Source of the DNA: a virus
Lineage: Duplodnaviria; Caudoviricetes
IMG/VR virus record: IMGVR_UViG_3300046169_000103
Coordinates: 1,924-65,923 of that record
Strand: one strand, 5' to 3'
Length of the DNA stretch: 64,000 bases
Position 1 is the stretch's first letter. The number at the start of each line of letters is the position of its first letter. Position numbers and translations under genes: made by a program. Under the pieces are notes generated by a model, which was given only the letters and a program-made list of their open reading frames with translations, was not told the DNA's origin and did no database searches. Positions 298 through 17,971 of the stretch are shown here, in pieces.

Positions 298-309
298 TTT
301 AATACATCA
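290..309 (+). promoter_or_regulatory. 20-bp motif copy TGACCTAA-TTTA-ATACATCA
   Basis: Matches recurring motif; 14 nt before ATG 324. Confidence 0.55.
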
Positions 310-323
310 TAATATCAAATACT

Positions 324-997: not shown

Positions 998-1817
998 ATC
1001 TACTATTTCTCTATCCATTGACCCTGACAATATACAGGGGAGTCTAGCTTACGATAAAGGCTATTCTAATGAATATGTTGAGATGTCATCTGTTCGCATA
1101 GGTAGGCTACACAAGGATAGAAATAATGTAGGTGTATGGGATGCTGTGGCTGTTGAGCGATTTGCTATGTTCTGTGCCGCCTGTGCAGGTAAGAATAGTC
1201 ATCAACAATCAGCCAAACTAGATCGGTTTAGTGAAGACCTATTCGATGTAGTGCATGAATGGGTGGTGGATTACAAGGCTGAGCTTATCGATATCAACAT
1301 AGAAGATATCGGTATGGTAAGCATGTTTGGCTTAATGCGTTCCATTGCTGGATATGACTATATATCCGAGGCGATTAAGCGTAGTAAGCTAGGCAAGTGG
1401 AATCTATTAGCTCCGGGCTTCAAGGCTATGGCTATGGATGACACATTTCCAGGTAAGATGGGCGATAGACTAGATAAGGTAGCTAAGTACTCAGGGTATG
1501 GGTTAAAGACTGCCTCCCTATTTAATATGCATGTCTTTCATGAGCCGTGTGCCTGCTTAGATACATATATACTTAGATGGCTTGCTGGTGACACCATGTT
1601 CCATGATGCCCCAATAGATATACTGCCCCCTTCATACAAGGGTGTGCCACGCCAATCGATCAGTAATTGGGATGTATACAGCCGATGGGAGGATGCCTTC
1701 CTATCAGAGTGCGTGCGTCGTGGGATGTCCCCCCTTGAACTTGATAAACAAATATGGATACACGCCCGTATCAAAACAGAAAAACCTAATAAAACACAGG
1801 AATTATGCCTAACTTAA
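987..1817 (+). CDS. HhH-superfamily DNA glycosylase/AP lyase, Ogg2-like
   Basis: SGYGLKTASLF (HhH with catalytic Lys), CLDTYILRWL (catalytic Asp), Y..WE..F and ELDKQIW resemble Ogg2 motifs. Confidence 0.7.
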   Translation: MSTKSTISLSIDPDNIQGSLAYDKGYSNEYVEMSSVRIGRLHKDRNNVGVWDAVAVERFAMFCAACAGKNSHQQSAKLDRFSEDLFDVVHEWVVDYKAELIDINIEDIGMVSMFGLMRSIAGYDYISEAIKRSKLGKWNLLAPGFKAMAMDDTFPGKMGDRLDKVAKYSGYGLKTASLFNMHVFHEPCACLDTYILRWLAGDTMFHDAPIDILPPSYKGVPRQSISNWDVYSRWEDAFLSECVRRGMSPLELDKQIWIHARIKTEKPNKTQELCLT

Positions 1818-2059
1818 CTATAGTTGGACTCGAGGATAGTTGCCACTCGGATTATCAATGCTTCGTCTTTGACGGAATTAAATCAGCTGAGTCACCTGAC
1901 ATTGCTAAATTTATCACCCGATGGGTGGATGAGCAATTCTCACACCGCAAGACAATCCCACCTGTTGAGGGGGAAGATTACCATGTGAATATCAGACACA
2001 TCAATGCCATCACTGATGCCAGCACCCATGATGTGAAAGAACCGCACTTACATCTTTAA
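1805..2059 (+). CDS. Hypothetical protein
   Basis: ORF preceded by AGGA, overlapping upstream stop. Confidence 0.6.
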   Translation: MPNLTIVGLEDSCHSDYQCFVFDGIKSAESPDIAKFITRWVDEQFSHRKTIPPVEGEDYHVNIRHINAITDASTHDVKEPHLHL

Positions 2060-2066
2060 CCACTTT

Positions 2067-2194
2067 TGGGGTTCCCGAGAGGAGTCTATTTATCGCAACG
2101 TGACGCTAGTTAATCGGGCGTTGTTATAGATCAAGGGATAAAGCATGCAAAGTCTTGGACTACGAGCGCCTTGAACCATGCCAAACCTGCCCCA
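2067..2194 (+). ncRNA. Candidate structured RNA with two possible pseudoknots
   Basis: Intergenic; several short complementary pairs (see findings). Confidence 0.35.
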
Positions 2195-2218
2195 TTTCAC
2201 TTTACCACACCTACATTT

Positions 2219-2572
2219 ATGACAATAGACGATATAAAACTAAAGGGTTTCGCAGGCTTAAGCTCTGTGGAAACAGAACCAATGAAAACATCCGATGAGG
2301 ATTCTGAATTCATGCGTGTAATGAGCAATGGTGAGTACCTTGCCCATATATGCCAATACACCAATCCAATGGTGGGTCCATTCATTATTCAAGCAATCAA
2401 TGAATTCTGCGAGGCAACCATCAAGAAGGGGGATGAGCTTATTGCTAATGAGAAAAAGCAAGAGGAGGAAGGCGTAATCAATCTCATGTCCAATGAGCTA
2501 TGGGTTGAGGTAGCCAAGTGGCTACGCCTACAAAACTACTACCAATACGAGGAGGAAGCCAATGTCAGCTAA
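2219..2572 (+). CDS. Hypothetical protein (ATG 2219 preferred over TTG 2171)
   Basis: In frame with ORF 2171..2572. Confidence 0.6.
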   Translation: MTIDDIKLKGFAGLSSVETEPMKTSDEDSEFMRVMSNGEYLAHICQYTNPMVGPFIIQAINEFCEATIKKGDELIANEKKQEEEGVINLMSNELWVEVAKWLRLQNYYQYEEEANVS

Positions 2573-2774
2573 ACCAGAAGATATACTATCCACACCTGCT
2601 CATGTCCGTGAGATGCAAGAGGAGGCAACTAAGAGCGAGGACGAGGAATGGGTGACTGTCGCATCAGGCAAGACTGAGCGTGAGCCAGTCAAGCAATCTA
2701 AGCGTATCAAACGGCTTACTCGTAGAAAAAACTACGGCACATGCCTTTCAACCATATCCCCTCACAGATCATGA
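2562..2774 (+). CDS. Hypothetical protein
   Basis: GAGGAGG SD upstream; overlap with previous ORF. Confidence 0.55.
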   Translation: MSAKPEDILSTPAHVREMQEEATKSEDEEWVTVASGKTEREPVKQSKRIKRLTRRKNYGTCLSTISPHRS

Positions 2775-3455
2775 ACTACGCAAGACCGGAATCAATGGGC
2801 TATATTCATGGCGAGAGTGACTTACTAAAGTGCCCGCCACGATTCTTAGCTGAATATAAATATAATGGATGGGCAATAGGTGTATCCCCTAACAAGGTAG
2901 AGACTAGGCATGGTAAATCATTGCCTCCTATCATTGCCGATCAGTGCCGTGACAACATTGAAAAGTTGCGTGGTATGATCGACTGGGATTTCTGCTAATA
3001 TGGTCCACGCTGAATTGATGTGTATCACCGAGCGTGGGTGTCCAAAAGATACAATTATTGTTCATGATTGTATGGGTGGGTTCTCAAGTGAATGCACTCA
3101 TTACGATAGAGTTTCTTTAATGTGGCTATCCACACCACTCGTGTTCCATGCAGGTAATCTATTAAAGCCTTATCTGCAGAGTGGTGAGCTACCCAATGGT
3201 TGGGAGGGGAGAGTGGCGGGGTCTGGCGGCCAAAGCGAGTAAGATATTACGAGCATGATGACCACGGGCACTCCCCTAATCTTTCATCAGCACTCAAAGG
3301 AGCAGCTTAGGTTCAACGCACAATGCGGTGAGCATTTCTATGAGGGCTTTGTGTATAAAAAAATTAGTGCTCATTACGGAGCACGAAATGCGTGGTTCAA
3401 GCAACGCATTCAAAATCAAATACTAAAATATAATAAGGAGGAAGTATATGCCTAA
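2741..3455 (+). pseudogene. ATP-dependent ligase-like nucleotidyltransferase, broken into three ORFs
   Basis: Motif I AEYKYNGW (2741 ORF), HAELM and IVHD (3000 ORF), YEGFVYK and WFKQR (3255 ORF); frameshift near 2998 and in-frame TAA at 3240. Confidence 0.6.
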
Positions 3456-3461
3456 AACCAG

Positions 3462-3653
3462 ATGTATTCGTTGTCGTCAGACAACCTAAAGGGGGTCGCC
3501 CAATGTTGGCGTACCCAGGAGCCGTATTCAACACTCACGCCAGAAGCTATTGATGCTATGCGTACGCATCGTGCATCTCTAGCTCAGTATTCCAAGAGGG
3601 ATTCTTTGGAAGTGTATGTTCACAGAACAAATAACAAAAATCGTATCAGATGA
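3462..3653 (+). CDS. Hypothetical protein
   Basis: ORF track; start uncertain. Confidence 0.4.
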   Translation: MYSLSSDNLKGVAQCWRTQEPYSTLTPEAIDAMRTHRASLAQYSKRDSLEVYVHRTNNKNRIR

Positions 3654-4114
3654 TTACAAAAACTGATCTATTACAAGAGTTTCAAAACTCCCTCATATGC
3701 GTGAAGTTATATGAGACTAGGATGCATGACCGATTGGATTTGATTAGGCATCTATCCTTGAATGGGTGGAAGATTCCAGCGTTTGATGTGCCTAATTGGT
3801 TAATAGATAATAACTTCTTGGAGCAAGATATCAGCATTGTATCCCTCAATGATCGTGGCGAAGAGTACCTCAAGATACTTGAAACCGCAGAGGGTGACCG
3901 ACCAGGTAGTATGTACTTCAATAGTACTGAAGCTGAGAAGAATAAGGAAGGTTCTATGTATGGGCATCCATTGTTCAGTGAATGCTCACTATATGAGGAT
4001 GTTACCCACTCTACTCCTAGTTCTAAACTTAGCCTATATCTTAACCCCACTGGTAGAGCATTTGATGCTAAATGGGTAAAGTATGATGGTGGTACGGAGT
4101 ACACACGAAAGTGA
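3650..4114 (+). CDS. Hypothetical protein
   Basis: ATGA-coupled ORF. Confidence 0.6.
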   Translation: MITKTDLLQEFQNSLICVKLYETRMHDRLDLIRHLSLNGWKIPAFDVPNWLIDNNFLEQDISIVSLNDRGEEYLKILETAEGDRPGSMYFNSTEAEKNKEGSMYGHPLFSECSLYEDVTHSTPSSKLSLYLNPTGRAFDAKWVKYDGGTEYTRK

Positions 4115-4275
4115 GTGCGGTAGTTAACATAATGGATGGATCTGTTTCCATCACCCTGTCCCCTAAACAATTAGAATCACTTCTCTATGATGGTGGGGAT
4201 ATCGTTGTGAAGGTTGATGTGGATGGTGCTGAGTCAGATATAACAATCAAGAAAGGAGAATGGAATGGGATATGA
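4111..4275 (+). CDS. Small hypothetical protein (54 aa, not in ORF track)
   Basis: GTGA overlap with upstream stop; open frame MSAVVNIMDGSVSITLSPKQLE... Confidence 0.45.
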   Translation: MSAVVNIMDGSVSITLSPKQLESLLYDGGDIVVKVDVDGAESDITIKKGEWNGI

Positions 4276-4450
4276 TGTTGAGGACCTAGCTAGGGATGCA
4301 ATGCGTGTTCCTATCATTGCCGAACAAATCAATCAATCTGTCCAACAAATGGGCGAAGTTATAAATAAATTCGAAGAATATCTAGATGCATCTGCACCTG
4401 TTATCTCGATTAAACATAAGGAGGAAAAAGAAAATGTCGACGAAGTCTAA
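4265..4450 (+). CDS. Hypothetical protein
   Basis: AAGGAG SD upstream. Confidence 0.55.
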   Translation: MGYDVEDLARDAMRVPIIAEQINQSVQQMGEVINKFEEYLDASAPVISIKHKEEKENVDEV

Positions 4451-5090
4451 AGAGTGGCAATTATTCAAGAAATGCAGGGAGGATATTATGTCCAACTATA
4501 CTAGACCTGAGCAGTCTGCTATGAAACAAAAGTGGACTGATGAATGTCTTGTGCCACTTGGATACAATCACGAGTTTGAGTTTGTTCGTTGCAAGGAGAA
4601 ATCCGATGACGAAAAAGCCAAGCTATTCAATGAGTGGTCAGATATGTTCAGGGATGGCAAGTTCAACCCTGATCGTAAGACAAAAGTAACCAAGAAGGTA
4701 AAGCCTAAGCGTGGTGCATCATTGGATGACCTGAGCTTGGATGAACCTGTGGTCAATACGCCTGACACTACAAATATTAAAGAACCAACCGAGGTTGATA
4801 AAGTTGTCGACCAACAGGTAAAGGAAATGCCTGACTTGGTTGAGCTTACTGAACAAAAACCTAAACCTAAACCAAAGGAGGATAAGGCTATGCCAAAATC
4901 AAAGAAAGAACTACTCCTCGAGGCAATCAGTGCCTTAGAGGAAGAAGAGAGTACCGGAATAACAGAGGAGCAAGTGGAGGAAATCTCCAAGCGTGTTGCT
5001 GTTAAAGTATTTACTGACCTATTTTCTGAGGTCAGTGAAACAATAACAAGCACTCTCTCTAGCTATGTGGAGGATACAAAGAACCAATGA
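4434..5090 (+). CDS. Hypothetical charged protein (start MSTKSK preferred)
   Basis: AAGGAGG upstream of ATG 4434; in frame with ORF 4386..5090. Confidence 0.65.
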   Translation: MSTKSKEWQLFKKCREDIMSNYTRPEQSAMKQKWTDECLVPLGYNHEFEFVRCKEKSDDEKAKLFNEWSDMFRDGKFNPDRKTKVTKKVKPKRGASLDDLSLDEPVVNTPDTTNIKEPTEVDKVVDQQVKEMPDLVELTEQKPKPKPKEDKAMPKSKKELLLEAISALEEEESTGITEEQVEEISKRVAVKVFTDLFSEVSETITSTLSSYVEDTKNQ

Positions 5091-5230
5091 GAACTATGAG
5101 TGTGGACAAAATAGCTGAAAAACTAATGGACGAGACAGATTCCATGTGGCGCAAGAATGAACTCACTACCGAGGAATATTATGCAGCCCGTCACTTCATA
5201 AGGAGGTTTAAAGATGAAATTGGGAAGTAG
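5087..5230 (+). CDS. Small hypothetical protein (47 aa, not in ORF track)
   Basis: ATGA overlap; MRTMSVDKIAEKLMDE... Confidence 0.45.
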   Translation: MRTMSVDKIAEKLMDETDSMWRKNELTTEEYYAARHFIRRFKDEIGK

Positions 5231-5414
5231 TGGTAATTTCAATCACCCGATGGGGGACTCTCCCCCTGACGATGACCGCTCGGACGAGGCAATAGACTCA
5301 TGCCGTGAGTGGGTGAAGCATAAAGACGAAATGGAACAACTAGAGGTATATCTACTTAGTGATTTCGATATACATAAACACCAAATAGAGGAAATAATAT
5401 TACAAAATGATTAA
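5214..5414 (+). CDS. Hypothetical protein
   Basis: AAGGAGGT SD upstream. Confidence 0.6.
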   Translation: MKLGSSGNFNHPMGDSPPDDDRSDEAIDSCREWVKHKDEMEQLEVYLLSDFDIHKHQIEEIILQND

Positions 5415-5483
5415 AGAACTAATAACGACCCACAACCTTGGGCTTGATGTACGGATCAAAGATAATGCAAGGGAGGATAACCA

Positions 5484-5762
5484 ATGAGACTAATACAATT
5501 CCATATAGGGGGCGATGAGTGGTTTATAAACCCTGACAATATACTCCATGTTCATCAGTGTATGCTAGGGAATAGTAGTAAGAACAATACAACCATATCA
5601 CTGGTAGACGAGTCATACATAACCGTCGACGAGACGCTCAAGACTGTAGTCGCTCGAATAAACAATCAGGAACTCAATGTAGCCTATGACTGCATGGGTG
5701 AAATCGAGCGACTTAAGCAAAAGGTTAAGAACCTACAAAGTAGCACGCAACCCAGTGAATGA
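5484..5762 (+). CDS. FlbD/SwrD-like small protein
   Basis: WFINPDNILHV...TTISLVDESYITVDETLKTVVARI resembles the FlbD family pattern. Confidence 0.5.
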   Translation: MRLIQFHIGGDEWFINPDNILHVHQCMLGNSSKNNTTISLVDESYITVDETLKTVVARINNQELNVAYDCMGEIERLKQKVKNLQSSTQPSE

Positions 5763-5765
5763 ATT

Positions 5766-7172
5766 ATGATATCTAAAAGAAAAATCGTAGCCGCTGACCT
5801 ATTCTGTGGGGCAGGTGGTACTAGTGCGGGTCTTCGTGATGCCTGTAAACAACTCGGATATGATACTGAGTTGGTTGCGGTCAATCATTGGCCCGTAGCA
5901 ATAGCAACGCATGAGGCATCCCATAGGTTTGCTCACCACTTATGTGAGAACCTAGATAATGTCGATCCACGCAAAGTATTCCCTAGTGGTAAGATTGATC
6001 TGCTTGTCGCTTCCCCAGAGTGTACACATTTTAGTGTCGCTCGTGGCGGTAAGCCTAAGTCCGATCAGAGCCGTGCAAGTGGTTGGCATGTACTAAGATG
6101 GGCAGAAGCATTACGACCTGATGTTGTAATTGTGGAAAATGTCAAGGAGTGGGCATCATGGTCGCCCCTAGATGCTGATGGTAACATCGATCCAGAATGT
6201 GAGAAAGGTTCTACCTTTCGTGGATGGGTAAGTGCCCTTGAGGGCTTAGGCTATACAGTAGAGTGGAAGGTACTATGTTGTGCTGACTATGGTGATGTCA
6301 CTAGTCGCCAACGCTTATTCGTTATGGCTAAGCGTGGTGGCAAGATTGTTTGGCCCGACCCATCCCATGCCAAGCAACCCGATATGTTTGTTCAACAAAA
6401 GTGGCGGTCTGCTCGTGAGATAATTGACTGGGATAATCAAGGTAAGTCAATATTCAATCGATCGAAACCCCTGTCGCAGAATACACTCAAGCGTATCGTT
6501 GCAGGGATTGAGAAGTTCTGCCCAGAGGTAAATGAATTCTTGGTGAAGATAAATGGCAACGATGCTGAGTCTATCAAGCATTCACCCAAGTCTGTTGAAG
6601 AACCATTGCGTACCATTACTGCCGGAGGTAAGCACTTCGCATTAGTGAAGACTAACTTTCTTGTACAGCTTAGTGGCACAGGGGAATCACAGATTAAATC
6701 TACGGCACAGGATGCTGACCAACCACTCACTACTATACATGGAGGCAAGAAACATGGGTTGGTTCAGCTTGAACCATTAGTGGTACAGATCGATAACCAT
6801 TCAAGCAAGGGTCACAACTGTCGAACGACTGATGAACCAATCAGTACAGTAGTTTCCAAAGGCAGGCACTGCCTCGTGCAACCCTTCCTATCAAAATACT
6901 ACGGCACTGGCGAAAATGTCTACTCGGTAGACGAACCTGTCCACACCCTAACCACTAAGGCACGACACGCATTGATCGAGCCGACTATGGAGCATGGTGT
7001 CTTGGATATTAAGTTCAGGATGCTAACCAATGATGAATTAGCCAAAGCCCATGGTATGGGAGACTTTGACTTCCAAGGCACATCTGCGGAAGTCACTAAA
7101 CAAATCGGTAATAGTGTACCGAGAAACATGGCGAAGGCACTCTGCCACGCCCAACTAACCAACCTAAATTAA
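5766..7172 (+). CDS. DNA (cytosine-5) methyltransferase
   Basis: Motif I DLFCGAGG, IV SPEC, VI ENV, VIII R.RLF, X QIGNSVP. Confidence 0.92.
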   Translation: MISKRKIVAADLFCGAGGTSAGLRDACKQLGYDTELVAVNHWPVAIATHEASHRFAHHLCENLDNVDPRKVFPSGKIDLLVASPECTHFSVARGGKPKSDQSRASGWHVLRWAEALRPDVVIVENVKEWASWSPLDADGNIDPECEKGSTFRGWVSALEGLGYTVEWKVLCCADYGDVTSRQRLFVMAKRGGKIVWPDPSHAKQPDMFVQQKWRSAREIIDWDNQGKSIFNRSKPLSQNTLKRIVAGIEKFCPEVNEFLVKINGNDAESIKHSPKSVEEPLRTITAGGKHFALVKTNFLVQLSGTGESQIKSTAQDADQPLTTIHGGKKHGLVQLEPLVVQIDNHSSKGHNCRTTDEPISTVVSKGRHCLVQPFLSKYYGTGENVYSVDEPVHTLTTKARHALIEPTMEHGVLDIKFRMLTNDELAKAHGMGDFDFQGTSAEVTKQIGNSVPRNMAKALCHAQLTNLN

Positions 7173-7174
7173 TT

Positions 7175-7858
7175 ATGCCATTAGGAGTAACTAGCGAAGA
7201 AGACACCCAGGTAGATGAGAACTATCCTTACTTACCTGTAGATGCGGATATTGAAGAAATAATCAAAGAAGAGATATCTCACCGCATACATGTATGTAAA
7301 GAAATCGAAACACTAAATGGTGTTAAGAAAATGATCGATGGAAGTATCCATGAAATTGTTAACGAACATCTGTACGAGCATGAAACTGCAGATTCCCTAC
7401 GTAATGGATACTTGGTTGAGGGCGAAGATGGTGAGGAAGTACAAATCCAAATCAGAAAGGCATATCGCTCCAAGAAGTGTGCAATCAAGCAGAAGAAGGG
7501 ACAAGAACCTAAGGAAACTAACAAGGATATCATGGCACTAGCTGAGATATTTGAATTAAAGAAAAACAAGGACGGGACATTCCCCTTCCCTGCCGGAACA
7601 TTCCTGTACAGGGACACAATAGTAGTAGACCCAACCAAGGTTCACCCTGATATGTTTGAGGACTTCGTTAAAGATGTCCGTGCCCTCGGGGAAAAGTACA
7701 AGCAGGGAAAACTGAACCCAGTGAGTGAGGATACGGAATTAGTAGCATCACCCACATTCCACTTGGGTAGGCTAAAACTATCCAAAGCAATCAACCTGAG
7801 GCTACATCAGTTGTTTCAGAATATAGCAATAAAACTAACAAATGAGGAGGAGAAATAA
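7175..7858 (+). CDS. Hypothetical protein
   Basis: Long coupled ORF. Confidence 0.7.
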   Translation: MPLGVTSEEDTQVDENYPYLPVDADIEEIIKEEISHRIHVCKEIETLNGVKKMIDGSIHEIVNEHLYEHETADSLRNGYLVEGEDGEEVQIQIRKAYRSKKCAIKQKKGQEPKETNKDIMALAEIFELKKNKDGTFPFPAGTFLYRDTIVVDPTKVHPDMFEDFVKDVRALGEKYKQGKLNPVSEDTELVASPTFHLGRLKLSKAINLRLHQLFQNIAIKLTNEEEK

Positions 7859-8427
7859 TGAAATCTACACTAGTTAAAATAACTCCAATAGGACATGACC
7901 CTGAGTTCATGGTAGTGACTACTGAGTCATCTGCCCATGAATTTATAAAGAGTTATGCCAAGGACAACGGATATCGAATCGAAGAGCGTGCGTGTGCAAA
8001 TAGATTCCAGTGCATACTACAGGACTTAAAGCGGATTGAGGAGACTCTAGAAAAATATGCTCCTGTCGTACTCAAACTACCTGCACTCGATGGTGGCGAA
8101 CCATACAACGACCATCTATCGCAATGCTTCTGGAATATTGAAACAGCTTGTGATGAGGAGGCAAGCGAAGTTGAGCATGAATGGCTTGCCTCTGGGGAGC
8201 TTCCCACATTTGGAGAGTACACCAAGAATATGACGCTCGAGCAAATGATGGAGATGTACTACGACATAGATATTTGGGAAGCTGGTGACAAGGCTGAACT
8301 ACCTCGCAAGGTATGGACATATAAGGATGTCGCTCATGCAGTAGATAACGCTGACTGGCTCCCTGACTTTGAAAAGAAGTTCAAGGAGTACCTAATAGAA
8401 AGGGAGTACATAAGAGATGACAGCTGA
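7858..8427 (+). CDS. Hypothetical protein
   Basis: TAATG overlap, GAGGAG SD. Confidence 0.7.
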   Translation: MKSTLVKITPIGHDPEFMVVTTESSAHEFIKSYAKDNGYRIEERACANRFQCILQDLKRIEETLEKYAPVVLKLPALDGGEPYNDHLSQCFWNIETACDEEASEVEHEWLASGELPTFGEYTKNMTLEQMMEMYYDIDIWEAGDKAELPRKVWTYKDVAHAVDNADWLPDFEKKFKEYLIEREYIRDDS

Positions 8428-9247
8428 TGTAACAAATAATAAACTACTACGCTTTCAGTTTGGTAACGCTAAACTAAGTAAGCTAATCGCCCACGTATCT
8501 CTACCTGCAGGCTTTACTTGCCCGGGTGCTAAAGAGTGCCTGACTTTTGCGAACCGCAAGACTCGCAAGCTCAAGGATGGTCCTGATACTCAGTTCCGTT
8601 GTTATGCAGCCGGAATGGAAGCTAGGTCTCCTGCCTACCACGATATTGTTTGGCATAACTTTGACCTAATAAATCAGGTCAAAAATGATGAGGATGCATT
8701 GTTTGAGTTGTATGCTGAGAGTTTAGCAATGATTCCAAACGCACTAATTGTTCGTAGTGGTGTAAGTGGTGACTTCTTCACCCAAGAGCAAGCCAATGCA
8801 GTAATGAGACTAGCGGATGCAAATCCAAACATACTGTTTTATGCCTACACTAAATCAGTTCCATTCTTCGAGGAACACTTGGATTGCGAAGGGAGGGTTA
8901 GGGATAACTTCATAGTTACCTGCTCTATCGGTGGCAAACATGATGAGGATGTGTACCGCAGGGAATACAAGTATGCAGTTGTGGTTAAGGATAAGGCGCA
9001 CGCTGACCGACTTGGTCTTGAGTGTGACCATGATGACACTCTTGCAATGCAACCTGGTGCTAGTTTCGCTCAACCCATTCATGGTGGTCAACCTGCTGGC
9101 AGTGAGTGGGGTCAATACTCACGCAAGAATGGATACAACAAATCTAAAAAAGACCCACTAATTGATGTAACAACCTATAACATATGGAAGGAAGTAATAC
9201 ATGGCAGTACTAGACATACGACAAAGCGAGCCGTCTCAACCATCTGA
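8417..9247 (+). CDS. GP88-like protein (divergent radical-SAM-like)
   Basis: GNAKL, SLPAGFTCPGAKEC-x20-CYA, R..VSGDF, FYAYTK motifs. Confidence 0.75.
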   Translation: MTADVTNNKLLRFQFGNAKLSKLIAHVSLPAGFTCPGAKECLTFANRKTRKLKDGPDTQFRCYAAGMEARSPAYHDIVWHNFDLINQVKNDEDALFELYAESLAMIPNALIVRSGVSGDFFTQEQANAVMRLADANPNILFYAYTKSVPFFEEHLDCEGRVRDNFIVTCSIGGKHDEDVYRREYKYAVVVKDKAHADRLGLECDHDDTLAMQPGASFAQPIHGGQPAGSEWGQYSRKNGYNKSKKDPLIDVTTYNIWKEVIHGSTRHTTKRAVSTI

Positions 9248-9872
9248 GTTGATCGGTTCACAAATACAAAAGACAGCATCTGCTTTATGGCAGAGCGCAG
9301 AGGACACACTATCGGGTGACGAAGAGTATCCGTTAGCTATTGTTCTTACAGGTGCGCCCGGTATCGGTAAGACCACGCTGGCTAATATGCTTGCGTTGAA
9401 GCTAACAGGTAGCAACTTCGCAGTTACTACCGAGAATGGTAAGGAGGTGGGTGTCGATCGGGTCAGGGATTTCATGGACAACATGAACAACTCCACCCTG
9501 TTTTCTGTTACTGGTCATCAATGTTGGATTATCAACGAGGGTGATAACATAACAGAGGCTGGACAAGTTGCGTTCCTATCATTACTCGACTCATGCCCGT
9601 CCAACTACCACATCATTCTCACATCCAACGAAGACTTAGATAATTGGAGTGAACGCTTTCAGACTAGGTTTGAAGTGTATAACATCCCATCCCCCGATGA
9701 CGATGAAATCGCAAAGGGTCTAGAGGATAGACTGCGTCCCGAGAATATGACCCCTCAACTAGAGCAACTCTGGCCGAAAGTTGCACAGACTGCATCCGAG
9801 GGATGTGGTGGCAATGTCCGTCAGGCAATCATGGAGATACGAGCATGGAAGCGGAAGAACAGGATATCATAG
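9201..9872 (+). CDS. AAA+ ATPase, clamp-loader clade
   Basis: Walker A GAPGIGKT, Walker B variant IINEGD, sensor ILTSN, QTRF, GNVRQA. Confidence 0.8.
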   Translation: MAVLDIRQSEPSQPSELIGSQIQKTASALWQSAEDTLSGDEEYPLAIVLTGAPGIGKTTLANMLALKLTGSNFAVTTENGKEVGVDRVRDFMDNMNNSTLFSVTGHQCWIINEGDNITEAGQVAFLSLLDSCPSNYHIILTSNEDLDNWSERFQTRFEVYNIPSPDDDEIAKGLEDRLRPENMTPQLEQLWPKVAQTASEGCGGNVRQAIMEIRAWKRKNRIS

Positions 9873-10387
9873 AGGTAGATAAATCCATAATAGAAGGAAA
9901 AGGTTACACCTTTGATAAAAGTGTGCCAGGACATGGTGGGTACAAAGCCCAAGGGAAGCACCTGAAAAACTTTTACTCTGGAGAGTCAATATCAAAACCT
10001 AAGCCAACAGGTAAGGTGTATGAGAATGACGGGAAATACTACCTCGTCACAGGCTACAATGAGAATGAAGTGAAGGGGCAAGAAGTAGTTCCTTTGGAGC
10101 CTGGTATGCCTAGCCTTCACTATGGTGAATGGGCAGCCATTCAGACTTGGGTAGAAGGTTATGGCGAAATCAGTGACGAGTTGGCTGAGTTAGCCATGAA
10201 GGTAGAGCAGTATTTCAAACAAGAAATAGGTAGGGGAAATGGGTACATAGGCGTGAGGTTTGAGTCACGCAAGCGGATATATGTAACCACCCCAAGAAAT
10301 GTAAAATTTGTAGCCAAGAAGCATGGGAATCAAATACAGGATGCATTCGCATGGGCTAACCCCGCACAGGAGGAAATGAAATTATGA
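9803..10387 (+). CDS. Hypothetical protein (start likely MEAEEQ at 9845)
   Basis: ORF track; GGAG upstream of 9845. Confidence 0.6.
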   Translation: MWWQCPSGNHGDTSMEAEEQDIIEVDKSIIEGKGYTFDKSVPGHGGYKAQGKHLKNFYSGESISKPKPTGKVYENDGKYYLVTGYNENEVKGQEVVPLEPGMPSLHYGEWAAIQTWVEGYGEISDELAELAMKVEQYFKQEIGRGNGYIGVRFESRKRIYVTTPRNVKFVAKKHGNQIQDAFAWANPAQEEMKL

Positions 10388-11226
10388 AAATAATACAGAC
10401 AAAAATAACGCCCTCGCAAGCAAGCGAGTTGTTAGGCAACAATCCAAACAACAGACTAGTGTCTCCTACTACCGTAAGGGATTATGTAAGAGACATGAAG
10501 GATCGGAAGTGGATGCCTAATGGAGAGACAATAAAGATATACAACGATACCAAGAATCGTAAGTTACCCATAACCAAGCATAGGTTAATTGATGGACAGC
10601 ACAGGCTAACTGCTTGCGTAAAATCAAACATACCCCTTGATGCGGTTATTGCGGTTGTTGATAGCCCTGATGTCTTCAAGACTATTGATACAGGCAAGAA
10701 ACGCAGCACAAAGGACTGCCTAGATATACTTGGCTTCACGAACACTGCCTGTCTGGCTGCTTCTTTAGCTTTGATCAAAAAAGTAGACACAACAGGGATA
10801 TCTGCAGTTACTAAATCACCAGGAGGTGGATCAACATCTAAGGTTAGAAATCACGAGATTGAGCAACTTGCTGATGAATATCCAACAATGCCGGAGTCTG
10901 TAGCATACGCAAACAGAGCGCGGACGCTACTAAAGACAAGACCTGCAACTATGTCAGTAATTCACTACAAGTTGTCTCAGGTCGATCAAGACCTAGCCGA
11001 GGAATTCTTAACTGCATTCCATGGTGGGGAAGGATTGAGCGGAACATCTCCAGTGCTTCATGCTAGAAATAGAATAATTAAGCGACTTATGTCTGATAAG
11101 ATTCTTACTCCATTCTATCTAATGAAGGTGGTGTTCACTGCTTGGAATCACTGGATTAGTGGCAATGAGATAACCAAGTTGCAGATTACCAATACTGAAA
11201 GCCTACCTAAACTAAAACACTCATAA
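10384..11226 (+). CDS. ParB/Srx-like N-terminal domain protein
   Basis: N..NR, LIDGQHRL, ID.G..R motifs. Confidence 0.75.
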   Translation: MKIIQTKITPSQASELLGNNPNNRLVSPTTVRDYVRDMKDRKWMPNGETIKIYNDTKNRKLPITKHRLIDGQHRLTACVKSNIPLDAVIAVVDSPDVFKTIDTGKKRSTKDCLDILGFTNTACLAASLALIKKVDTTGISAVTKSPGGGSTSKVRNHEIEQLADEYPTMPESVAYANRARTLLKTRPATMSVIHYKLSQVDQDLAEEFLTAFHGGEGLSGTSPVLHARNRIIKRLMSDKILTPFYLMKVVFTAWNHWISGNEITKLQITNTESLPKLKHS

Positions 11227-12104
11227 TGAAAGAATACTATACAGGAATTGATGACCCTAAGCGTGCCATACTACTTAATGAGCATAGAAATATTGAGTTA
11301 GGCTTCATGCTCTCTACTAATCGCATAAAGAGAAGGAAGAAAGAGATACTCAATAAGGGTAAGTGGATGCTCGACTCAGGGGCATTCACGCAGATTAAGG
11401 ACAATGGTAAGTTCATCATTCCTGTTGAGAAGTATGTGGAAATCATCAAGCGACACGAGGATGAGAACCTAGTGTGTGCTGTCACTCAGGACTATATGTG
11501 TGAACCAGATATGTTAGAAATAACAGGCAAGACAGTCCGTGAGCATATCAGGATGACCGTCCAGAGATACTTCCGTATTCTTAAGCTTATGAGAAAGCGT
11601 GGATGTAGCACAATGCTACTCCCTGTATTACAGGGCATGGAGGCACAGGACTACATCGAATGCTTGGACTTGTACGAGGAGGGGTGGCGAAAGCTGGAGA
11701 ATAGGTATGGGTTTCTGTACAGATTCGGGGGTGAGCAATTCACCCGCCCTACTCGTATCGGTTTTGGATCTATGTGCAAACGCAATGGCAACCCTGGTCC
11801 TGTCGAATCAATACTTGATCAGATGGAGCATAGGCTAGGGAATTTTAAAATCCATCTATTCGGTTTTAAAACAACAGGCTTGAATATTAAGTGGGAGATT
11901 GCTTCACGCATCCACTCTGCCGACTCCTTTGCATATAGCATGAGAGACAGGAAATACAATGCACATGAAGCACCGGAAATTAATGTGAGAACTAATGACT
12001 CACGAGCCGAGCTTGCTATCGAACATGGTAGAAAGATGGCAAGACTCGTAGAGAAAACACAAACAACACTAAACCTAAACCTAGATTATGGAGTAACAAT
12101 ATGA
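11226..12104 (+). CDS. dpdA: DpdA/TGT-like DNA-guanine transglycosylase
   Basis: WMLDSGAF, QDYMCEP, PVLQG, GFGSMCKR, IHLFGFK, SADS: TGT-barrel motifs. Confidence 0.75.
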   Translation: MKEYYTGIDDPKRAILLNEHRNIELGFMLSTNRIKRRKKEILNKGKWMLDSGAFTQIKDNGKFIIPVEKYVEIIKRHEDENLVCAVTQDYMCEPDMLEITGKTVREHIRMTVQRYFRILKLMRKRGCSTMLLPVLQGMEAQDYIECLDLYEEGWRKLENRYGFLYRFGGEQFTRPTRIGFGSMCKRNGNPGPVESILDQMEHRLGNFKIHLFGFKTTGLNIKWEIASRIHSADSFAYSMRDRKYNAHEAPEINVRTNDSRAELAIEHGRKMARLVEKTQTTLNLNLDYGVTI

Positions 12105-12457
12105 GCGGAGAAGGTCATTATGCGTCCTTTAGGAGGACAGACGAAACACAGGAGGATAACGAAGATTTATGTAAAATGTTCGAAAGACTCATCCTGACAT
12201 CACCAGTAACTAAACACATGAAGTTCTACCCTGATTCTGTTGGGCAAGTTACGCTTTACGAAAAAGACGGAAGCGATACGCCTCAATGGCTAAAAGAACG
12301 CTTAGAAGATGGAGAATTTTGGTTTTACATTTCGACTTATGAATCGTGGTACGAAGACGCAGATATATACGAATCAGAGGACCGAGAGGATAGCTTTGTA
12401 TCAATTGCTAAAAAATTCGCAGTAAATAACAACCTAAATATGGAGTAACAGTATGAG
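12087..12457 (+). repeat. 19-bp direct repeat TATGGAGTAACARTATGAG at 12087-12105 and 12439-12457
   Basis: 18/19 identical; flanks ORF 12101..12448. Confidence 0.8.
12101..12448 (+). CDS. Hypothetical protein (repeat-flanked cassette)
   Basis: GGAG SD within the repeat. Confidence 0.65.
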   Translation: MSGEGHYASFRRTDETQEDNEDLCKMFERLILTSPVTKHMKFYPDSVGQVTLYEKDGSDTPQWLKERLEDGEFWFYISTYESWYEDADIYESEDREDSFVSIAKKFAVNNNLNME

Positions 12458-12574
12458 AGAGAAAGACCTCAAAAAAATAATAGCAACAGACAGATATAAC
12501 CTGCTCAGAGGCAAGGAAAGTCGAATCGGGTACTGGCTGAAGAAAATTAAATACAGAATAGAGTTATTTATTTC

Positions 12575-12594
12575 TGACCTAATATAATAGATAT
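12575..12594 (+). promoter_or_regulatory. 20-bp motif copy TGACCTAA-TATA-TAAGATAT
   Basis: Overlaps SNF2 start codon. Confidence 0.5.
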
Positions 12595-15097
12595 GTCTAA
12601 ACCAAGACCAAATGTATATCTGACCCCAACGGGGTCATTGCGGATAAATACCGATGGGATAACTAATTACTCCCTAGTATGGCGTTTACAGCAAGCACAT
12701 GGCACAACTGCTATGGCTCTGACTACGAACAATTCCGACAGGATGTTGCTCAATACCATGCTCGAGGAGTACGAGAAGTATTCATCTAGTGGTAATGCAA
12801 GATTCATTGTTTCTCCTGAAGCAGCTGAGTCGATCGATGAAGCAATTACTGCAAGCTCTGAACCCATCCCCCCTATCCTGCCACTTAAACCCTACGAGAA
12901 ACTGGGTGCCATCTCAGAGATTGGTAAGTTACAGGCACGGACATCCTTCGGTTCATCCGGTAATAATAAAGAACCATACATTATTAAGAACGAGATGTAT
13001 GAATTCAATGTATCCACTCGTGACTACGAGAAGGAATACCCTCGCACCAAAATGCATGCCAAGAAGAAGACAGGCGAAACCTATACAATGGTGCATACCT
13101 GTCGACTTGAAGGCACTGACTCATCTTTTACATTCAGGGATGAGAATAGCGAGTGGTGGACATTCAGGGAGCATCCCGAGACTAGACTAGAATTGAGCGA
13201 GAAGAAACTCTGGGAGTACTTCCTTGAGCCGGAAATCGCATCAATCAAGGAACTCTATCCTGAAAAGTGGGAGGAGCATAACGAGATGCTTGATATGCTT
13301 GAGGACTTGGGTGATGGCACTTGGAAATACTTCGAGGGTCAACGCAAGTTCCTCTCCTCCTTCTCCATGCTGGACTCTGGTCTGCTTGCTTGGGAGATGG
13401 GTGGTGGTAAGACCCTTGCCGCTTACTCAATGTTCTACCTCAAGAATGCTAAGCGTGCATTATTTATTGTACCCAAGGGCACTAGTGTGAGTGAGGATGG
13501 CAGAAAGGTTAAGTTTGATGATGTTCCTCAGTGGGTAGCCGAGGCACAAAAGTTCGCCCCTGATGTCCCTGTCCACAATCTCTTTACTAAAGAACAATAC
13601 GAGAATCTGCTAGACGAGCATGGTCAATTGCCCCGTGGTATATTCCTCACCTACCCTCATGCCCTGTTTAATAATGGTGGTGCATTTGAGAATATGCCAA
13701 AGACCAAGGCATGGAAGAATGAAGCAGGCGAGAAAAAGTTCTGCGAGAAGTATGGCATCGAATACAAGGAGGAGTTTGGCATTCGCTACACCACTGGTAT
13801 CGGTGAGGAAATCAATGGCATACATTGCGTGGCTACTCCATCCCTTGCCACCCTGTGCCACCAGCAATTTGATATGGTGATGGTGGACGAAGCACACCTG
13901 ATGTGCAACCCCCACTCTAATATCACCCGTGGTTTGCTCAGGATGCAACCTAAGTACAGGTATGCAATGACTGCTACCCCTATCCCTAATTATGTTTACA
14001 ATATCTTCCCCATCATGGGTTGGCTTGCCGTAGATAACTGGCGATTGGACAGGCGACGCTCACCAAGATGGCCTTTTGGATTGCAGGAGATTAGTAGATT
14101 TAAATCTGCCCATGTCTCCAAGGAGAGAGACTTAACCCAGGAAGAATTGGCAGAGAAGTTCGATGAGTCAAAACCATCACCGAAAGATTCTGCCACCATT
14201 TCGCAGGTCCCCAATCTTCTCTATCTCATTCGTAAGACTTGTGGCTACATGTCTAAGAAGGATATCAATCCAGACATAGTCAAATGTGACATAAATACTA
14301 TCCGTGTCCCCATGGGTAGCCAGCAACATAAGTTGTATGCCCACTACCTCCAACGAAAGAATATTCCACTTGATAATCCTATTGCGGTTGCAATGACTCA
14401 GCAGACCTACCTTAGATGTCTATGTGCTGATCCATTCGGTGTAGCATACAACAATGTAGAGGACAAGAAGGTGATGTCTAACTACAACCCCAAGACAGTC
14501 GCCACCCTCCAGATGATTGCCGACTACATCAACAAAGGTGAGCAAGTTGTGTATGTCGCTTTTAATAACGGTCAGATTGATGAGATTCGTAAGCGTCTAG
14601 ATATGGCAGATGTCAGGTACTCAATGATTCGTGGTGATGTCAAAGATCAGTCGAGTCAATCCGCTAGGTTTAAGCGTGGTGAAACCATGGTCATGCTGAT
14701 GAATATATTCTGTGCCCAAGCCCACTCCTTTGAGAACTGCAAGCATATGATTATCGGTAGCCTTGAGTGGAGTTATGGTAAGTTCGCTCAGGCTTGCGGT
14801 AGAATTCATCGAATCAATAGCCCAGAGGATGTGGATGTAAATGTTATACTCCACGAACACACTATCGAGGAATTATTGTTCGAGAAGGTAGGCACTAAGG
14901 AAGATGCAGCTACCATCTGCATGAAAGCAGAGCATAGCAACAGTGATGTTAAGCCTGTCGACCCTAGTGAGTTGCTTGCTGAACACTTCGAGAACTTTCG
15001 ATCCGGCAATCAGGATGTCATGGATGAAGAGGATTGCGAAAGACAATGGCCCGACCTGATGTACAAACTCAAAAACGGATGTGAAATAGCTTTATGA
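12593..15097 (+). CDS. SNF2-family SF2 helicase/translocase
   Basis: EMGGGKT, MVDEAH, MTATP, QACGRIHR. Confidence 0.88.
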   Translation: MSKPRPNVYLTPTGSLRINTDGITNYSLVWRLQQAHGTTAMALTTNNSDRMLLNTMLEEYEKYSSSGNARFIVSPEAAESIDEAITASSEPIPPILPLKPYEKLGAISEIGKLQARTSFGSSGNNKEPYIIKNEMYEFNVSTRDYEKEYPRTKMHAKKKTGETYTMVHTCRLEGTDSSFTFRDENSEWWTFREHPETRLELSEKKLWEYFLEPEIASIKELYPEKWEEHNEMLDMLEDLGDGTWKYFEGQRKFLSSFSMLDSGLLAWEMGGGKTLAAYSMFYLKNAKRALFIVPKGTSVSEDGRKVKFDDVPQWVAEAQKFAPDVPVHNLFTKEQYENLLDEHGQLPRGIFLTYPHALFNNGGAFENMPKTKAWKNEAGEKKFCEKYGIEYKEEFGIRYTTGIGEEINGIHCVATPSLATLCHQQFDMVMVDEAHLMCNPHSNITRGLLRMQPKYRYAMTATPIPNYVYNIFPIMGWLAVDNWRLDRRRSPRWPFGLQEISRFKSAHVSKERDLTQEELAEKFDESKPSPKDSATISQVPNLLYLIRKTCGYMSKKDINPDIVKCDINTIRVPMGSQQHKLYAHYLQRKNIPLDNPIAVAMTQQTYLRCLCADPFGVAYNNVEDKKVMSNYNPKTVATLQMIADYINKGEQVVYVAFNNGQIDEIRKRLDMADVRYSMIRGDVKDQSSQSARFKRGETMVMLMNIFCAQAHSFENCKHMIIGSLEWSYGKFAQACGRIHRINSPEDVDVNVILHEHTIEELLFEKVGTKEDAATICMKAEHSNSDVKPVDPSELLAEHFENFRSGNQDVMDEEDCERQWPDLMYKLKNGCEIAL

Positions 15098-15498
15098 TAA
15101 CAAAGACAAAACCAAATGACCCGAGGTACGAACTTGACGAGAGTCGCTCGGTAGAGGTTTACAGAAACCTACATAAACAATGCTACTCAATAAAACAGGA
15201 CGGACTAGTTAAAGCCCATGCTGATGAGATATCACTTAAAAAATGCACATTCCATGTAAATGAAAAAGGTAGAGACAGGGTGCGTAAGACAAAACGCAAA
15301 GAGGTTCACGCTTGGGTAAAAGGCTTCCTATCAAAACTCTTCGATCTACCCATGGAATACAACCGAATCCATTACAATCCTTATAAAACTGATGGCTTTA
15401 TGCATAGGGTAGAAACTGGTGCTTTTAGCGCCACATTCTGCGAGATAGTTCAAGCTGATCGAGTCAGTCTTATACCAGGAGGAATTTATAAATCATGA
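15094..15498 (+). CDS. Conserved phage hypothetical protein
   Basis: VYRNLH...RKEVHAWV...YNPYK pattern seen in phage proteins. Confidence 0.65.
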   Translation: MITKTKPNDPRYELDESRSVEVYRNLHKQCYSIKQDGLVKAHADEISLKKCTFHVNEKGRDRVRKTKRKEVHAWVKGFLSKLFDLPMEYNRIHYNPYKTDGFMHRVETGAFSATFCEIVQADRVSLIPGGIYKS

Positions 15499-15839
15499 AA
15501 GATAAACTAAAACAGGTTATACCATACCTTGAGTATGTAGCTTCACCTGATACTGCGTATAACGAATATGACCCTGCCGACTACAAGCAGGGTAAACTAC
15601 ATAACCACTGTGGTTGTGTTGCATATGTGATACAAAAGTATTTCGGTGGAGAGATAGTGGTAATGAAAGGTCATTACTGGAATAAAATAGATGGGGTGGG
15701 CTATGATGCCACGCATGAAAAGTTGGACTTTATGCCTCCCTATAGCGTGAGCCGTAAAGTACCTGAACGCAAAAAGGTGAATCCTAGATTCTCAACCTTT
15801 TACAATAGAGTGGAGTGGGCAATCAATGGCCAAGGATAA
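15495..15839 (+). CDS. YunG-like protein (Cys-His-Asp)
   Basis: HCGCVAYVIQKYFGGEI...HYWNKIDG..YDAT. Confidence 0.55.
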   Translation: MKDKLKQVIPYLEYVASPDTAYNEYDPADYKQGKLHNHCGCVAYVIQKYFGGEIVVMKGHYWNKIDGVGYDATHEKLDFMPPYSVSRKVPERKKVNPRFSTFYNRVEWAINGQG

Positions 15840-16177
15840 ACCAGGAGCAGGATGGGGTACTGATTGCGAAGCGCAACTAGAGTACGAGAACGATAATTAC
15901 TACCTACTCACGTGGGATGACCCTTGCTGTATGGAAATCAGGAACACCAATCAAGTTATATCCGCTCTTGGTGTCAGTCTGGTAGAGGATGAATCCAAGT
16001 GGTATATGCATAACAAGGTTCATAGAGAAGGTACAGTCAACGAGAGATATCAAGGAATTATTGGACTGGCTCAACGCAGAGCAAGAAGGACCTGACCGAG
16101 TGCCATCAGAAAACTTTATTACTGATGATTGTGGATATGTATGGATCAGGAGAATACTAACTAAATGCGAATTATGA
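15826..16177 (+). CDS. Hypothetical protein(s); two overlapping ORFs, possibly one frameshifted gene
   Basis: ORFs 15826..16095 and 15989..16177 overlap by 107 nt. Confidence 0.45.
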
Positions 16178-16455
16178 GTGATATAGATACAGAAAAGAAA
16201 TGGACGACCAAAGCAGCTAAGGCTTTGATTGGTAAAAAAATAGTTAAAGTTCAGTACATGACCAAGAAGAACGCTGGTGACCTAGATTGGTATCAGCGTC
16301 CACTTATGCTGAAACTTGATGATGGCTCACTTATATTCCCACAAGCAGATGACGAGGGGAATGATGGAGGAGCATTAGTTCATTATGACAAAGATAAGCT
16401 AGATAACGATAACCACGAGGATTTATATCCCGTATTATGGAGAGAAAAATTATGA
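16165..16455 (+). CDS. Conserved phage hypothetical protein
   Basis: KIVKVQYM...DDEGNDGGAL. Confidence 0.65.
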   Translation: MRIMSDIDTEKKWTTKAAKALIGKKIVKVQYMTKKNAGDLDWYQRPLMLKLDDGSLIFPQADDEGNDGGALVHYDKDKLDNDNHEDLYPVLWREKL

Positions 16456-16883
16456 AAATAGTAAAACAACACAAAAATAGGAGCGCCCATTCTGAGGCGT
16501 TTGGAATATTCTCAGGCAAGACATTGGCTGATATTAAAATAGGTATTAACGAAACTGGATGCACTTATGGAGGTACGAACGATCAGATTGAGTATGTCAA
16601 GGTAGGTGATACTAGTCATGGTGCATTCTTATGGTTTGATGACATAGGAGAAGTCTCACGACTTGGTAGAAAGCTAGTGGAATATGCTGAAGAGTATGAG
16701 AGACGACAGGAGAATGTAGCAGATGGTGAAGGCTTTTTGCCCAAAGGAACTAACATTGATGACTGGATTGAGGAGGAGTCTGGCATTGAGGTGGCAGAAG
16801 CCAGGGAGGGCATACATAATGATTCTCCTATTTACGATGGTACTAACGAGGACGAGTGCGAGGAATACGCCAATAGAGATTGA
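16437..16883 (+). CDS. Hypothetical acidic protein
   Basis: ORF track. Confidence 0.6.
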   Translation: MERKIMKIVKQHKNRSAHSEAFGIFSGKTLADIKIGINETGCTYGGTNDQIEYVKVGDTSHGAFLWFDDIGEVSRLGRKLVEYAEEYERRQENVADGEGFLPKGTNIDDWIEEESGIEVAEAREGIHNDSPIYDGTNEDECEEYANRD

Positions 16884-16884
16884 C

Positions 16885-16904
16885 TGACCTAACATATTAG
16901 TACA
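16885..16904 (+). promoter_or_regulatory. 20-bp motif copy TGACCTAA-CATA-TTAGTACA, followed by palindrome GTACAC-AA-GTGTAC (16900-16913)
   Basis: Fills the gap before the integrase. Confidence 0.65.
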
Positions 16905-16915
16905 CAAGTGTACAC

Positions 16916-17971
16916 ATGAAGTTACTTAAAACCAAAACTGGTTACTCTGTGAGGTATAAGACGGAGTTTGGTATGAGAACTACCAGACTCTCGTCTACCT
17001 CAGAGAAGGATGCTCGTAAGGAAGTAAGGGATGCTAAGATTGCAGAGCTTGAAGCTGCAGCCAATGCCGGAGCATTAACTATGGATGTCATCGCAAAGAT
17101 GATGGCTGGACGAGTCATGACTTGTCAGGACGCTCTAGATGAGTGGAATGAGTGGCGTGAGTCCGAGGGCAAGTCTGCTAACACTATCAATAGTCAGACC
17201 GACTTCATTCATTTATTCTGCAAGGCACAGCACGGCATGGATAAACCTGTTAACACTATCACCCACAAGATGATATCGAAGTGGGTAAATAATCCAAAAT
17301 CCAAGGTAGGTGTCTCCACTAGGAACGCATGGTTGTCCGCAATCTCCGCATTCCTATCATTCTGCTCAACTAGGCAATACATCCCAAAGAACCCCGCTAG
17401 TATAGTATCGGTCAATATGGGCAAGCTATCCCATGAGCAAAAAGAGAAGAAAAGAGTAGTTCCCTTCACAGAGGAGGAGTACAAGAAGTTGTACAACAAT
17501 GCCATTGACTGCTTTAAGAATGATGCAGTAGGTGAATTCTGGGTGGTTGCCTCTACCCTATCCTATTGGCTTGGATTGAGGCTTGGTGATATCATTAACC
17601 TTGAGTGGGATTCATTAGGTAAAACCCACATCACTGTTTGGACAGAAAAGAAAGATGCTAGGGTAAAACTACCAATCAATCATAAACTAACAGGGGGCAA
17701 GGCAATCAGTAAAGCCCTTGCTATGATTTCTTATGATGATGGCAAGTATGTGTTCTCGAAAGAGTATAGAGATAAGATAAATGACCCTAAAAAACGCCAC
17801 TACTTTAGTCAGCAGTTCAGGGAGTTAATGAATCGCCTAGACATAGAGGGCAAATCCTTTCATTGCTTCCGTCATGCTTTTGCTACTAGGCACAAGAATA
17901 TGCCCCTAGAGGATGTAGCCAAGATGCTTGGTCATAAAAGCACCAAGACAACCAAGGGATATACCCACTAA
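16916..17971 (+). CDS. int: Tyrosine recombinase/integrase
   Basis: GLRLGD (R), EKK (K), HCFRH (HxxR), LGH, C-terminal GY; N-terminus resembles an arm-binding domain. Confidence 0.92.
   Translation: MKLLKTKTGYSVRYKTEFGMRTTRLSSTSEKDARKEVRDAKIAELEAAANAGALTMDVIAKMMAGRVMTCQDALDEWNEWRESEGKSANTINSQTDFIHLFCKAQHGMDKPVNTITHKMISKWVNNPKSKVGVSTRNAWLSAISAFLSFCSTRQYIPKNPASIVSVNMGKLSHEQKEKKRVVPFTEEEYKKLYNNAIDCFKNDAVGEFWVVASTLSYWLGLRLGDIINLEWDSLGKTHITVWTEKKDARVKLPINHKLTGGKAISKALAMISYDDGKYVFSKEYRDKINDPKKRHYFSQQFRELMNRLDIEGKSFHCFRHAFATRHKNMPLEDVAKMLGHKSTKTTKGYTH

Follow-up and report, generated by a model that had tools for sequence, protein, structure and literature searches.

The early arm of a 64,000-nucleotide stretch of virus DNA (hereafter the window; bases 1924–65923 of the linear, 65,923-base IMG/VR virus record IMGVR_UViG_3300046169_000103, which CheckV rates as 88% complete) contains a gene for a DpdA-family DNA transglycosylase, the only gene of its region with a predicted DNA-modifying role (Table 1). 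The explanation that we consider the most probable, with somewhat better than even confidence, is that of a stand-alone DpdA using a 7-deazaguanine made by the host, the adjoining genes for a GP88-family protein, a AAA+ ATPase, a ParB-like protein and an SNF2 helicase being separate early genes. A first-pass annotation made from the sequence alone had grouped these genes, together with one encoding a protein of no recognized family, into a candidate new system of DNA base modification. Family matches and structural models confirm that the genes are present as it described, including the clamp-loader character of the ATPase.

Assignment of the transglycosylase rests on a score of 96 bits against PF23859 (cut-off 27; 92.6 bits in a six-frame search) and on 31% identity to Orion gp20 over 245 residues (E 3e-27). 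PDB sequences, searched with the protein itself and with its profile, gave only chance-level rows, the profile reaching no PDB chain. Phage records matching the protein number 406, of which 398 are mycobacteriophages. The clade to which it belongs is distributed over many phyla, in temperate phages as well as in prophages. Across an alignment of 37 relatives sharing 33–86% identity, the invariant positions are D50-S-G-A-F54, Q88-D89, V134-L-Q-G137 and H210; at least 90% of the sequences have D233-S234. For the DpdA of Salmonella Montevideo, Gedara et al. 2023 (PMC10164549) name Asp95 as general acid/base, Phe99 as the residue stacked on the base, Asp130 as base-binding and Asp256 as nucleophile. 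The D50...F54 spacing equals that of Asp95...Phe99, and D89 and D233 would, by their order and spacing, correspond to Asp130 and Asp256. The catalytic residues thus aligned appear intact, and the loss of the catalytic aspartates of the tRNA-guanine transglycosylase (TGT) fold, raised at first pass as a possible objection, is not seen.

Models of QueC, GTP_cyclohydroI (FolE), PTPS (QueD), Radical_SAM and QueF had no match in the whole 65,923-base record; the same models do match in 10–14 control genomes, and a like search recovers the record's own DpdA. The earlier observation that no folE, queD, queE, queC or queF homolog lies in the window therefore stands, and the suspicion that such genes might be found just outside it finds nothing in the full record. 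Whole-record searches were extended to the 40, among 82 IMG/VR loci of this DpdA clade, that lie on contigs of at least 34 kb, 27 of them from records at least 90% complete. QueC was found in two of the 40 (2/27 among the more complete records) and QueD in one, so a lone DpdA is the norm for the clade. The sole record of the 40 with a preQ0 pathway is that of a 111-kb phage (G029), in which QueE is encoded 3.5 kb upstream of dpdA and the other three, QueD, QueC and FolE, at the left end. In this left-end block (L240, G029:C1, 17–4874), QueD and QueC come first, a low-complexity 230-aa open reading frame (ORF) separates them from FolE, and FolE is followed by a 434-aa protein whose N-terminal domain is of the DNA_pol3_beta type. 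The ORF between QueC and FolE was considered as a QueE or a GP88 relative and rejected, given its low complexity and an hhalign probability of 0.18%.

A host source for the base is consistent with the bacteria in which relatives of this DpdA reside. From 70 bacterial and archaeal genome loci we chose 30, isolates and long contigs in a non-random selection that includes one unpublished genome (G069). A QueC match was present in 26 of these 30 bacterial genomes carrying apparent prophage copies of the DpdA clade (24 strong, two weak at ~4e-7), which makes host-made preQ0 a likely donor. Phages of this kind are already in print. Hutinet 2019 (PMC6884629) described, as the third of its groups and the largest, 76 phages termed 'DpdA only', with DpdA and without G+ or preQ0 biosynthesis homologs, and proposed that they depend on preQ0 from the host or on uptake; phage DpdAs expressed alone insert preQ0 or preQ1 made by Escherichia coli (PMC6884629, PMC10516641). 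The window accordingly holds a marine member of a described kind rather than the undescribed system first proposed. The part of that proposal which invoked a host-derived deazaguanine agrees with the intact DpdA, the missing preQ0 genes and the host base as natural donor; the part which invoked new chemistry by a multi-gene system is not supported.

If the enzyme works as TGT and bacterial DpdA do, D233 would attack C1' of the target deoxyguanosine in double-stranded DNA to give an intermediate in which enzyme and DNA are covalently joined, with D50 as general acid/base, D89 and Q136 reading the edge of the base and F54 stacking on it, and a free 7-deazaguanine base would take the place of guanine. 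The inserted base would most likely be preQ0, perhaps preQ1, and would come from the queuosine pathway of the host because the phage record lacks these genes. We infer, then, that this DpdA is active, that DNA is its substrate, that the base is a 7-deazaguanine and that the host supplies it. Modification of this sort would follow replication, would be partial and limited to a motif, and would blunt host restriction. GP88, the AAA+ ATPase, the ParB-like protein and SNF2 would have nucleotide, replication or recombination functions and would lie nearby through synteny and mosaicism.

Several points weigh against this explanation. At 88% completeness, que genes could sit in the missing ~12% of the record. 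Supply of preQ0 by the phage's own host is a presumption. In the data of Hutinet 2019 (PMC6884629), Orion DNA was without 7-deazaguanine and phage 7-11 had only trace dADG, at ~50 per million nucleotides. Lastly, the position of the ParB-like gene, directly upstream of dpdA, brings to mind bacterial DpdB (PMC10164549) and gp1–gp2 of Rosebush, to which we return below.

It is possible, though unlikely, that DpdA makes no useful modification of the phage genome, whether as a relic, as an enzyme for another substrate (tRNA or another base) or as one that works in certain hosts only, like that of Orion. The closest tested relative is precisely Orion gp20, which goes with unmodified DNA, and 7-11 had only traces (PMC6884629). 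The blank result with Orion has, however, been explained by a host lacking the preQ0 pathway (PMC6884629), and the catalytic residues are invariant across a large clade. The protein is moreover kept at 80–98% identity in several environmental clusters and also in many complete phage genomes, which argues for selection.

Whether the neighbors of dpdA belong to its function was judged from their linkage across relatives. We compared 84 DpdA loci, comprising 82 from IMG/VR (80 of them the best of 155 confirmed relatives) with those of phiLM21 and DelRivs, against which the 13 early proteins of the window were run by tblastn. SNF2 and the integrase occur near DpdA in seven loci (L003, L005, L006, L008, L010, L021 and L048), all of one lineage and in varying order, the AAA+ ATPase in three, GP88 in two (L003, and L039 on the opposite strand and 7 kb off) and the ParB-like protein in one (L070, 4 kb off). 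When the ORFs up to 5 kb from dpdA were clustered across 85 loci, no neighbor family reached more than eight of them. The nearest relative, L003, is 85% identical in DpdA, 84% in GP88, 60% in the AAA+ ATPase, 62% in SNF2 and 79% in the integrase, and has two other small genes in the place of the ParB-like gene. Over the 40 whole records of the clade, GP88 is present in two, with only that of L003 exceeding the cut-off; the family of the ParB-like protein, phrog_5931, is also present in two, in both 20–30 kb from dpdA and one of them again L003; and ParB_N has a single match, below cut-off.

The same picture emerges from the side of GP88. Confirmed relatives made up 546 of 600 scanned IMG/VR stretches, and among the best 80 GP88 loci neither DpdA nor the ParB-like gene lies within 6 kb of GP88 in any. 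The AAA+ ATPase and SNF2 do so in one locus each, L143, which is from the same phage lineage; its record (62 kb, CheckV 83% complete) has GP88, the AAA+ ATPase and SNF2 and no DpdA match. GP88, the ParB-like gene and the AAA+ ATPase therefore show no conserved linkage with DpdA, the very result that the first-pass annotation had named beforehand as refuting its single linked module. SNF2 and the integrase are core genes of the early arm of this phage lineage, and the clamp-loader-type ATPase is not tied to DpdA.

Directly ahead of dpdA is the ParB-like gene, whose stop codon shares one base with the dpdA start in a TAATG at 11224–11228. The junction noted at first pass was read directly in the sequence, and three further seawater runs, belonging to other studies, have contigs that span it with no difference, which rules out an artefact of assembly. 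Because genes overlap at 10 of the 12 junctions of the arm between 5766 and 15839, the TAATG says little about a special tie between the two genes. The ParB-like protein had no match in Pfam (ParB_N at E<=0.01), NCBIfam or PADLOC and only chance-level rows in PDB sequence searches, whereas its model, built with 40 homologues (predicted local distance difference test, pLDDT, 89.7), is more telling. With the N-domain (residues 1–105), Foldseek listed Noc, KorB and ParB (probability 0.9–0.99) together with sulfiredoxin and PadC, all at E 3e-3 and weaker. The exhaustive aligner VIA gave sulfiredoxin (Z 6.5, 83 residues aligned, root-mean-square deviation, rmsd, 3.7), PadC (6.2), a serine kinase (6.2) and KorB (5.7), its top six rows being all ParB/Srx members at Z 5.2–6.5. 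Within the DGQHR motif, G71-Q-H-R74 is invariant in 40 sequences. On the strength of the model, the ParB-like label is sound at the superfamily level. Contigs of two runs (X2 and X5) share the same loose ends within this gene, at 10586–10622; this suggests that related seawater phages diverge from the window there, fitting a mosaic gene content.

These features invite the reading of a two-part machine in which the ParB/Srx DGQHR protein is the phage counterpart of DpdB, a nucleoside triphosphatase (NTPase) that loads or activates DpdA, with the TAATG keeping the two in step. Bacterial DpdA indeed requires DpdB, an ATPase of the ParB superfamily that bears a DGQQR motif (PMC10164549), the window protein has the ParB/Srx N-domain with its invariant G-Q-H-R, the junction recurs in the contigs of the other runs, and Rosebush, whose DNA bears dPreQ0 (PMC6884629), has a ParB-like gene overlapping dpdA. 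We nevertheless hold it to be rather improbable. The family is missing from 38 of the 40 DpdA-clade records and distant from dpdA in the other two, ParB_N adds only its one subthreshold match, and overlapping junctions are general in the arm. The family also occurs in 83 isolated-phage records from many hosts, the copy in Bipper (the one neighborhood read) adjoining RecE/RecT. PADLOC, whose DpdE models do match SNF2, does not match this protein, and other phage DpdAs are active alone (PMC6884629, PMC10516641). A complex prediction for DpdA with the ParB-like protein scored 0.52 against 0.34 for the control and allowed no call either way. The ParB-like protein thus appears to be a neighbor of DpdA rather than a conserved partner.

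GP88 was the other candidate for a share in base modification. It scores 104.3 bits against PF17338 (cut-off 24.4), a family with 1041 representatives at E<=1e-3 (50% identity). The Cx5Cx20C pattern reported at first pass is confirmed by the translation (C35-x5-C41-x20-C62), and the three cysteines, which precede the first long helices, are invariant in 61 aligned family members; an invariant G118-D119 follows the next strand. For the model built on the 61 sequences (pLDDT 92.6), Foldseek found only weak and assorted triosephosphate isomerase (TIM) barrels. With VIA, the first two rows were QueE of Burkholderia multivorans (4njg, Z 6.4, 179 residues aligned, rmsd 4.8) and of Bacillus subtilis (5tgs, Z 6.4, 163 aligned). 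All of the top 18 rows were radical S-adenosylmethionine (SAM) enzymes, including spore photoproduct lyase, TYW1, lipoyl synthase, viperin and PFL activase, at Z values (4.8–6.4) in the range below 8 that may mirror merely a common arrangement. This is a fair lead, from the predicted structure, to GP88 as a very divergent radical-SAM-like partial barrel. As a hidden QueE, GP88 was ruled out: its profile against a nine-sequence QueE alignment gave an hhalign probability of 0.06% (control, GP88 against DpdA, 0.35%), the Radical_SAM model matches none of the 61 family members and nothing in the record, and the cysteine spacing differs from CxxxCxxC and from Cx14CxxC. With GP88 too, PDB sequences yielded chance-level rows only, by single sequence and by profile.

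The company that GP88 keeps elsewhere is of another kind. Long GP88 proteins (P0248, P0332 and P0208) are fused to NUDIX (2.2e-19) or to a MazZ-like dATP/dGTP diphosphohydrolase N-domain (7.2e-11), with a weak ParB_N in one, and in Synechococcus phage S-EIVl GP88 sits between ThyX and DNA polymerase A; these fusions and neighbors point to nucleotide metabolism. Of the 80 GP88 loci, 17 have a homologue of the Phage_L5_gp82-family gene that follows SNF2 in the window, no more than 6 kb from GP88, as against one of the 84 DpdA loci, and the two proteins may form a functional pair. Both families take their names from genes of mycobacteriophage L5. The earlier suggestion that GP88 further modifies the inserted base finds no support in this context or in any linkage to DpdA, and GP88 is more plausibly involved in nucleotide metabolism, perhaps jointly with the gp82-like protein, than in the finishing of a base already in DNA. 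A literature search for the whole words 'gp88' and 'pf17338' found no published GP88 chemistry, the listed matches being progranulin or unrelated phage gp88.

We give very little credence to the combined proposal in which the ParB/Srx DGQHR protein drives DpdA as a DpdB counterpart, GP88 is a radical-SAM-type enzyme altering the base or the nucleotide pool, and the block writes an undescribed 7-deazaguanine derivative or other base. The weakest of the alternatives, that GP88, the AAA+ ATPase, the ParB-like protein, DpdA and SNF2 constitute one new multi-step system, with GP88 changing the inserted base, can draw on contiguous, mostly overlapping genes on one strand, on the likeness of the GP88 model to radical-SAM enzymes with QueE first, and on the retention of four of the genes (GP88, AAA+, DpdA and SNF2) in L003, but is most improbable given a linkage that vanishes past this closest relative, the L143 record with three of the genes and no DpdA match, the want of a ParB-like gene at this place in L003 itself, the QueE profile result and the ties of GP88 to nucleotide metabolism.

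The stand-alone DpdA that we favor thus belongs to an uncultured lineage of temperate marine phages and is encoded in its early arm. The arm occupies the + strand from base 1 to 17971 and ends in a tyrosine integrase (16916–17971); terminase, portal, tail-fibre and other virion genes are on the - strand. A sequencing-run search detected DNA of the phage in metagenomes from several studies, both seawater and marine viral (stretches without contig cover in single runs carry no meaning), and RNA runs contain only 0.05–0.07 of its words. No near-identical phage record was found by megablast. The terminase has three distant matches among 50,697 phage records, and SNF2 likewise only a handful of distant ones.

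Among the lesser genes, the AAA+ ATPase has weak matches to Pfam AAA and DNA_pol3_delta2 and to NCBIfam delta'/RFC models, all below cut-offs. The ORF that follows overlaps it by 70 bases, and since the Atlas protein begins at residue 15 the true start is probably at 9845; Atlas scores for this protein were below 0.9, and Atlas searches yielded nothing past Pfam names. The gene of the 115-aa protein overlaps the end of dpdA by 4 bases and has no tblastn match in L003. SNF2 matches the DpdE models of PADLOC weakly (6.7e-7) and those of ZorD better (5.4e-16). Further upstream, the protein at 987–1817 was labeled an Ogg2-like glycosylase at first pass, a label that neither Pfam nor PHROGs confirms: it has no Pfam match at E<=0.01 and matches only phrog_11575 (2.7e-14), of unassigned function.

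Table 1. Genes of the early arm around dpdA, in window coordinates, with the family matches on which their names rest
Feature	Coordinates	Strand	Family evidence
GP88-family protein, 276 aa	8417..9247	+	PF17338, E 1.2e-29
Small AAA+ ATPase, clamp-loader type, 223 aa	9201..9872	+	phrog_5846 'clamp loader', 1.4e-20
Hypothetical protein, 194 aa	9803..10387	+	no family in Pfam, PHROGs, NCBIfam, PADLOC
ParB/Srx-fold protein (by model), DGQHR motif, helical C-domain, 280 aa	10384..11226	+	phrog_5931, 1.5e-47
DpdA, 292 aa	11226..12104	+	PF23859, 2.5e-27; phrog_1279, 1.2e-37
Hypothetical protein, 115 aa	12101..12448	+	no family in Pfam, PHROGs, NCBIfam, PADLOC
SNF2-family helicase, 834 aa	12593..15097	+	PF00176 and PF00271
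Phage_L5_gp82-family protein, 134 aa	15094..15498	+	PF25735, 2e-30; also phrog_586
YunG-family small protein, directly after the gp82-like gene	15495–15839		PF24585, 1.8e-11

Of the systems described so far, the 'DpdA only' phages are the nearest in kind: Orion (gp20) and Salmonella phage 7-11 (gp032) have, like the window, a lone dpdA without preQ0 or G+ genes (PMC6884629). The phage of the window differs in being marine, uncultured and temperate, and its dpdA lies in the early arm beside a ParB-like gene, whereas Orion-type dpdA lies among structural genes; its DpdA has no BLAST similarity to the 7-11 protein. Of such phages, Hutinet 2019 (PMC6884629) tested one that had unmodified DNA and one that had traces. 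As 39 of the 40 long DpdA-clade records are without QueD and 38 without QueC, the idea of host supply becomes testable with a small, self-contained gene. GP88, whose family numbers over 1000 representatives at 50% identity, gains a first structural lead and a context in nucleotide metabolism.

The bacterial Dpd system of Salmonella Montevideo (PMC10164549) shares with the window a TGT-fold DNA transglycosylase, the Asp...Phe spacing and an adjoining ParB-superfamily protein with DGQ-x-R. Unlike that system, the window has no DpdC–K and no meaningful PADLOC match to its DpdA or ParB-like protein, and while DpdB is found in 92% of dpdA-harboring bacterial genomes (PMC5699537), the ParB-like partner is absent from the records of 38 of 40 DpdA relatives. 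Mycobacteriophage Rosebush offers a third arrangement (L249, NC_004684, 1–4363). Its gp1, annotated as a 'ParB-like partition protein', overlaps dpdA (gp2) by 4 bases, with queC, queD, queE and folE following as gp3–gp6, and dPreQ0 replaces ~28% of G in its DNA (Hutinet 2019, PMC6884629). Rosebush thus carries the full preQ0 pathway that the window lacks, and in both the start of dpdA is overlapped by a ParB-like gene. Neither the ParB-like protein nor the DpdA of Rosebush has BLAST similarity to that of the window, the left end of Orion, a phage of the sister subcluster, is without a ParB-like gene, and 'ParB' is absent from the main text of Hutinet 2019 (PMC6884629). ParB-superfamily genes consequently abut dpdA in three unrelated settings: the bacterial Dpd cluster, Rosebush with its own preQ0 pathway, and the lone dpdA of this marine phage.

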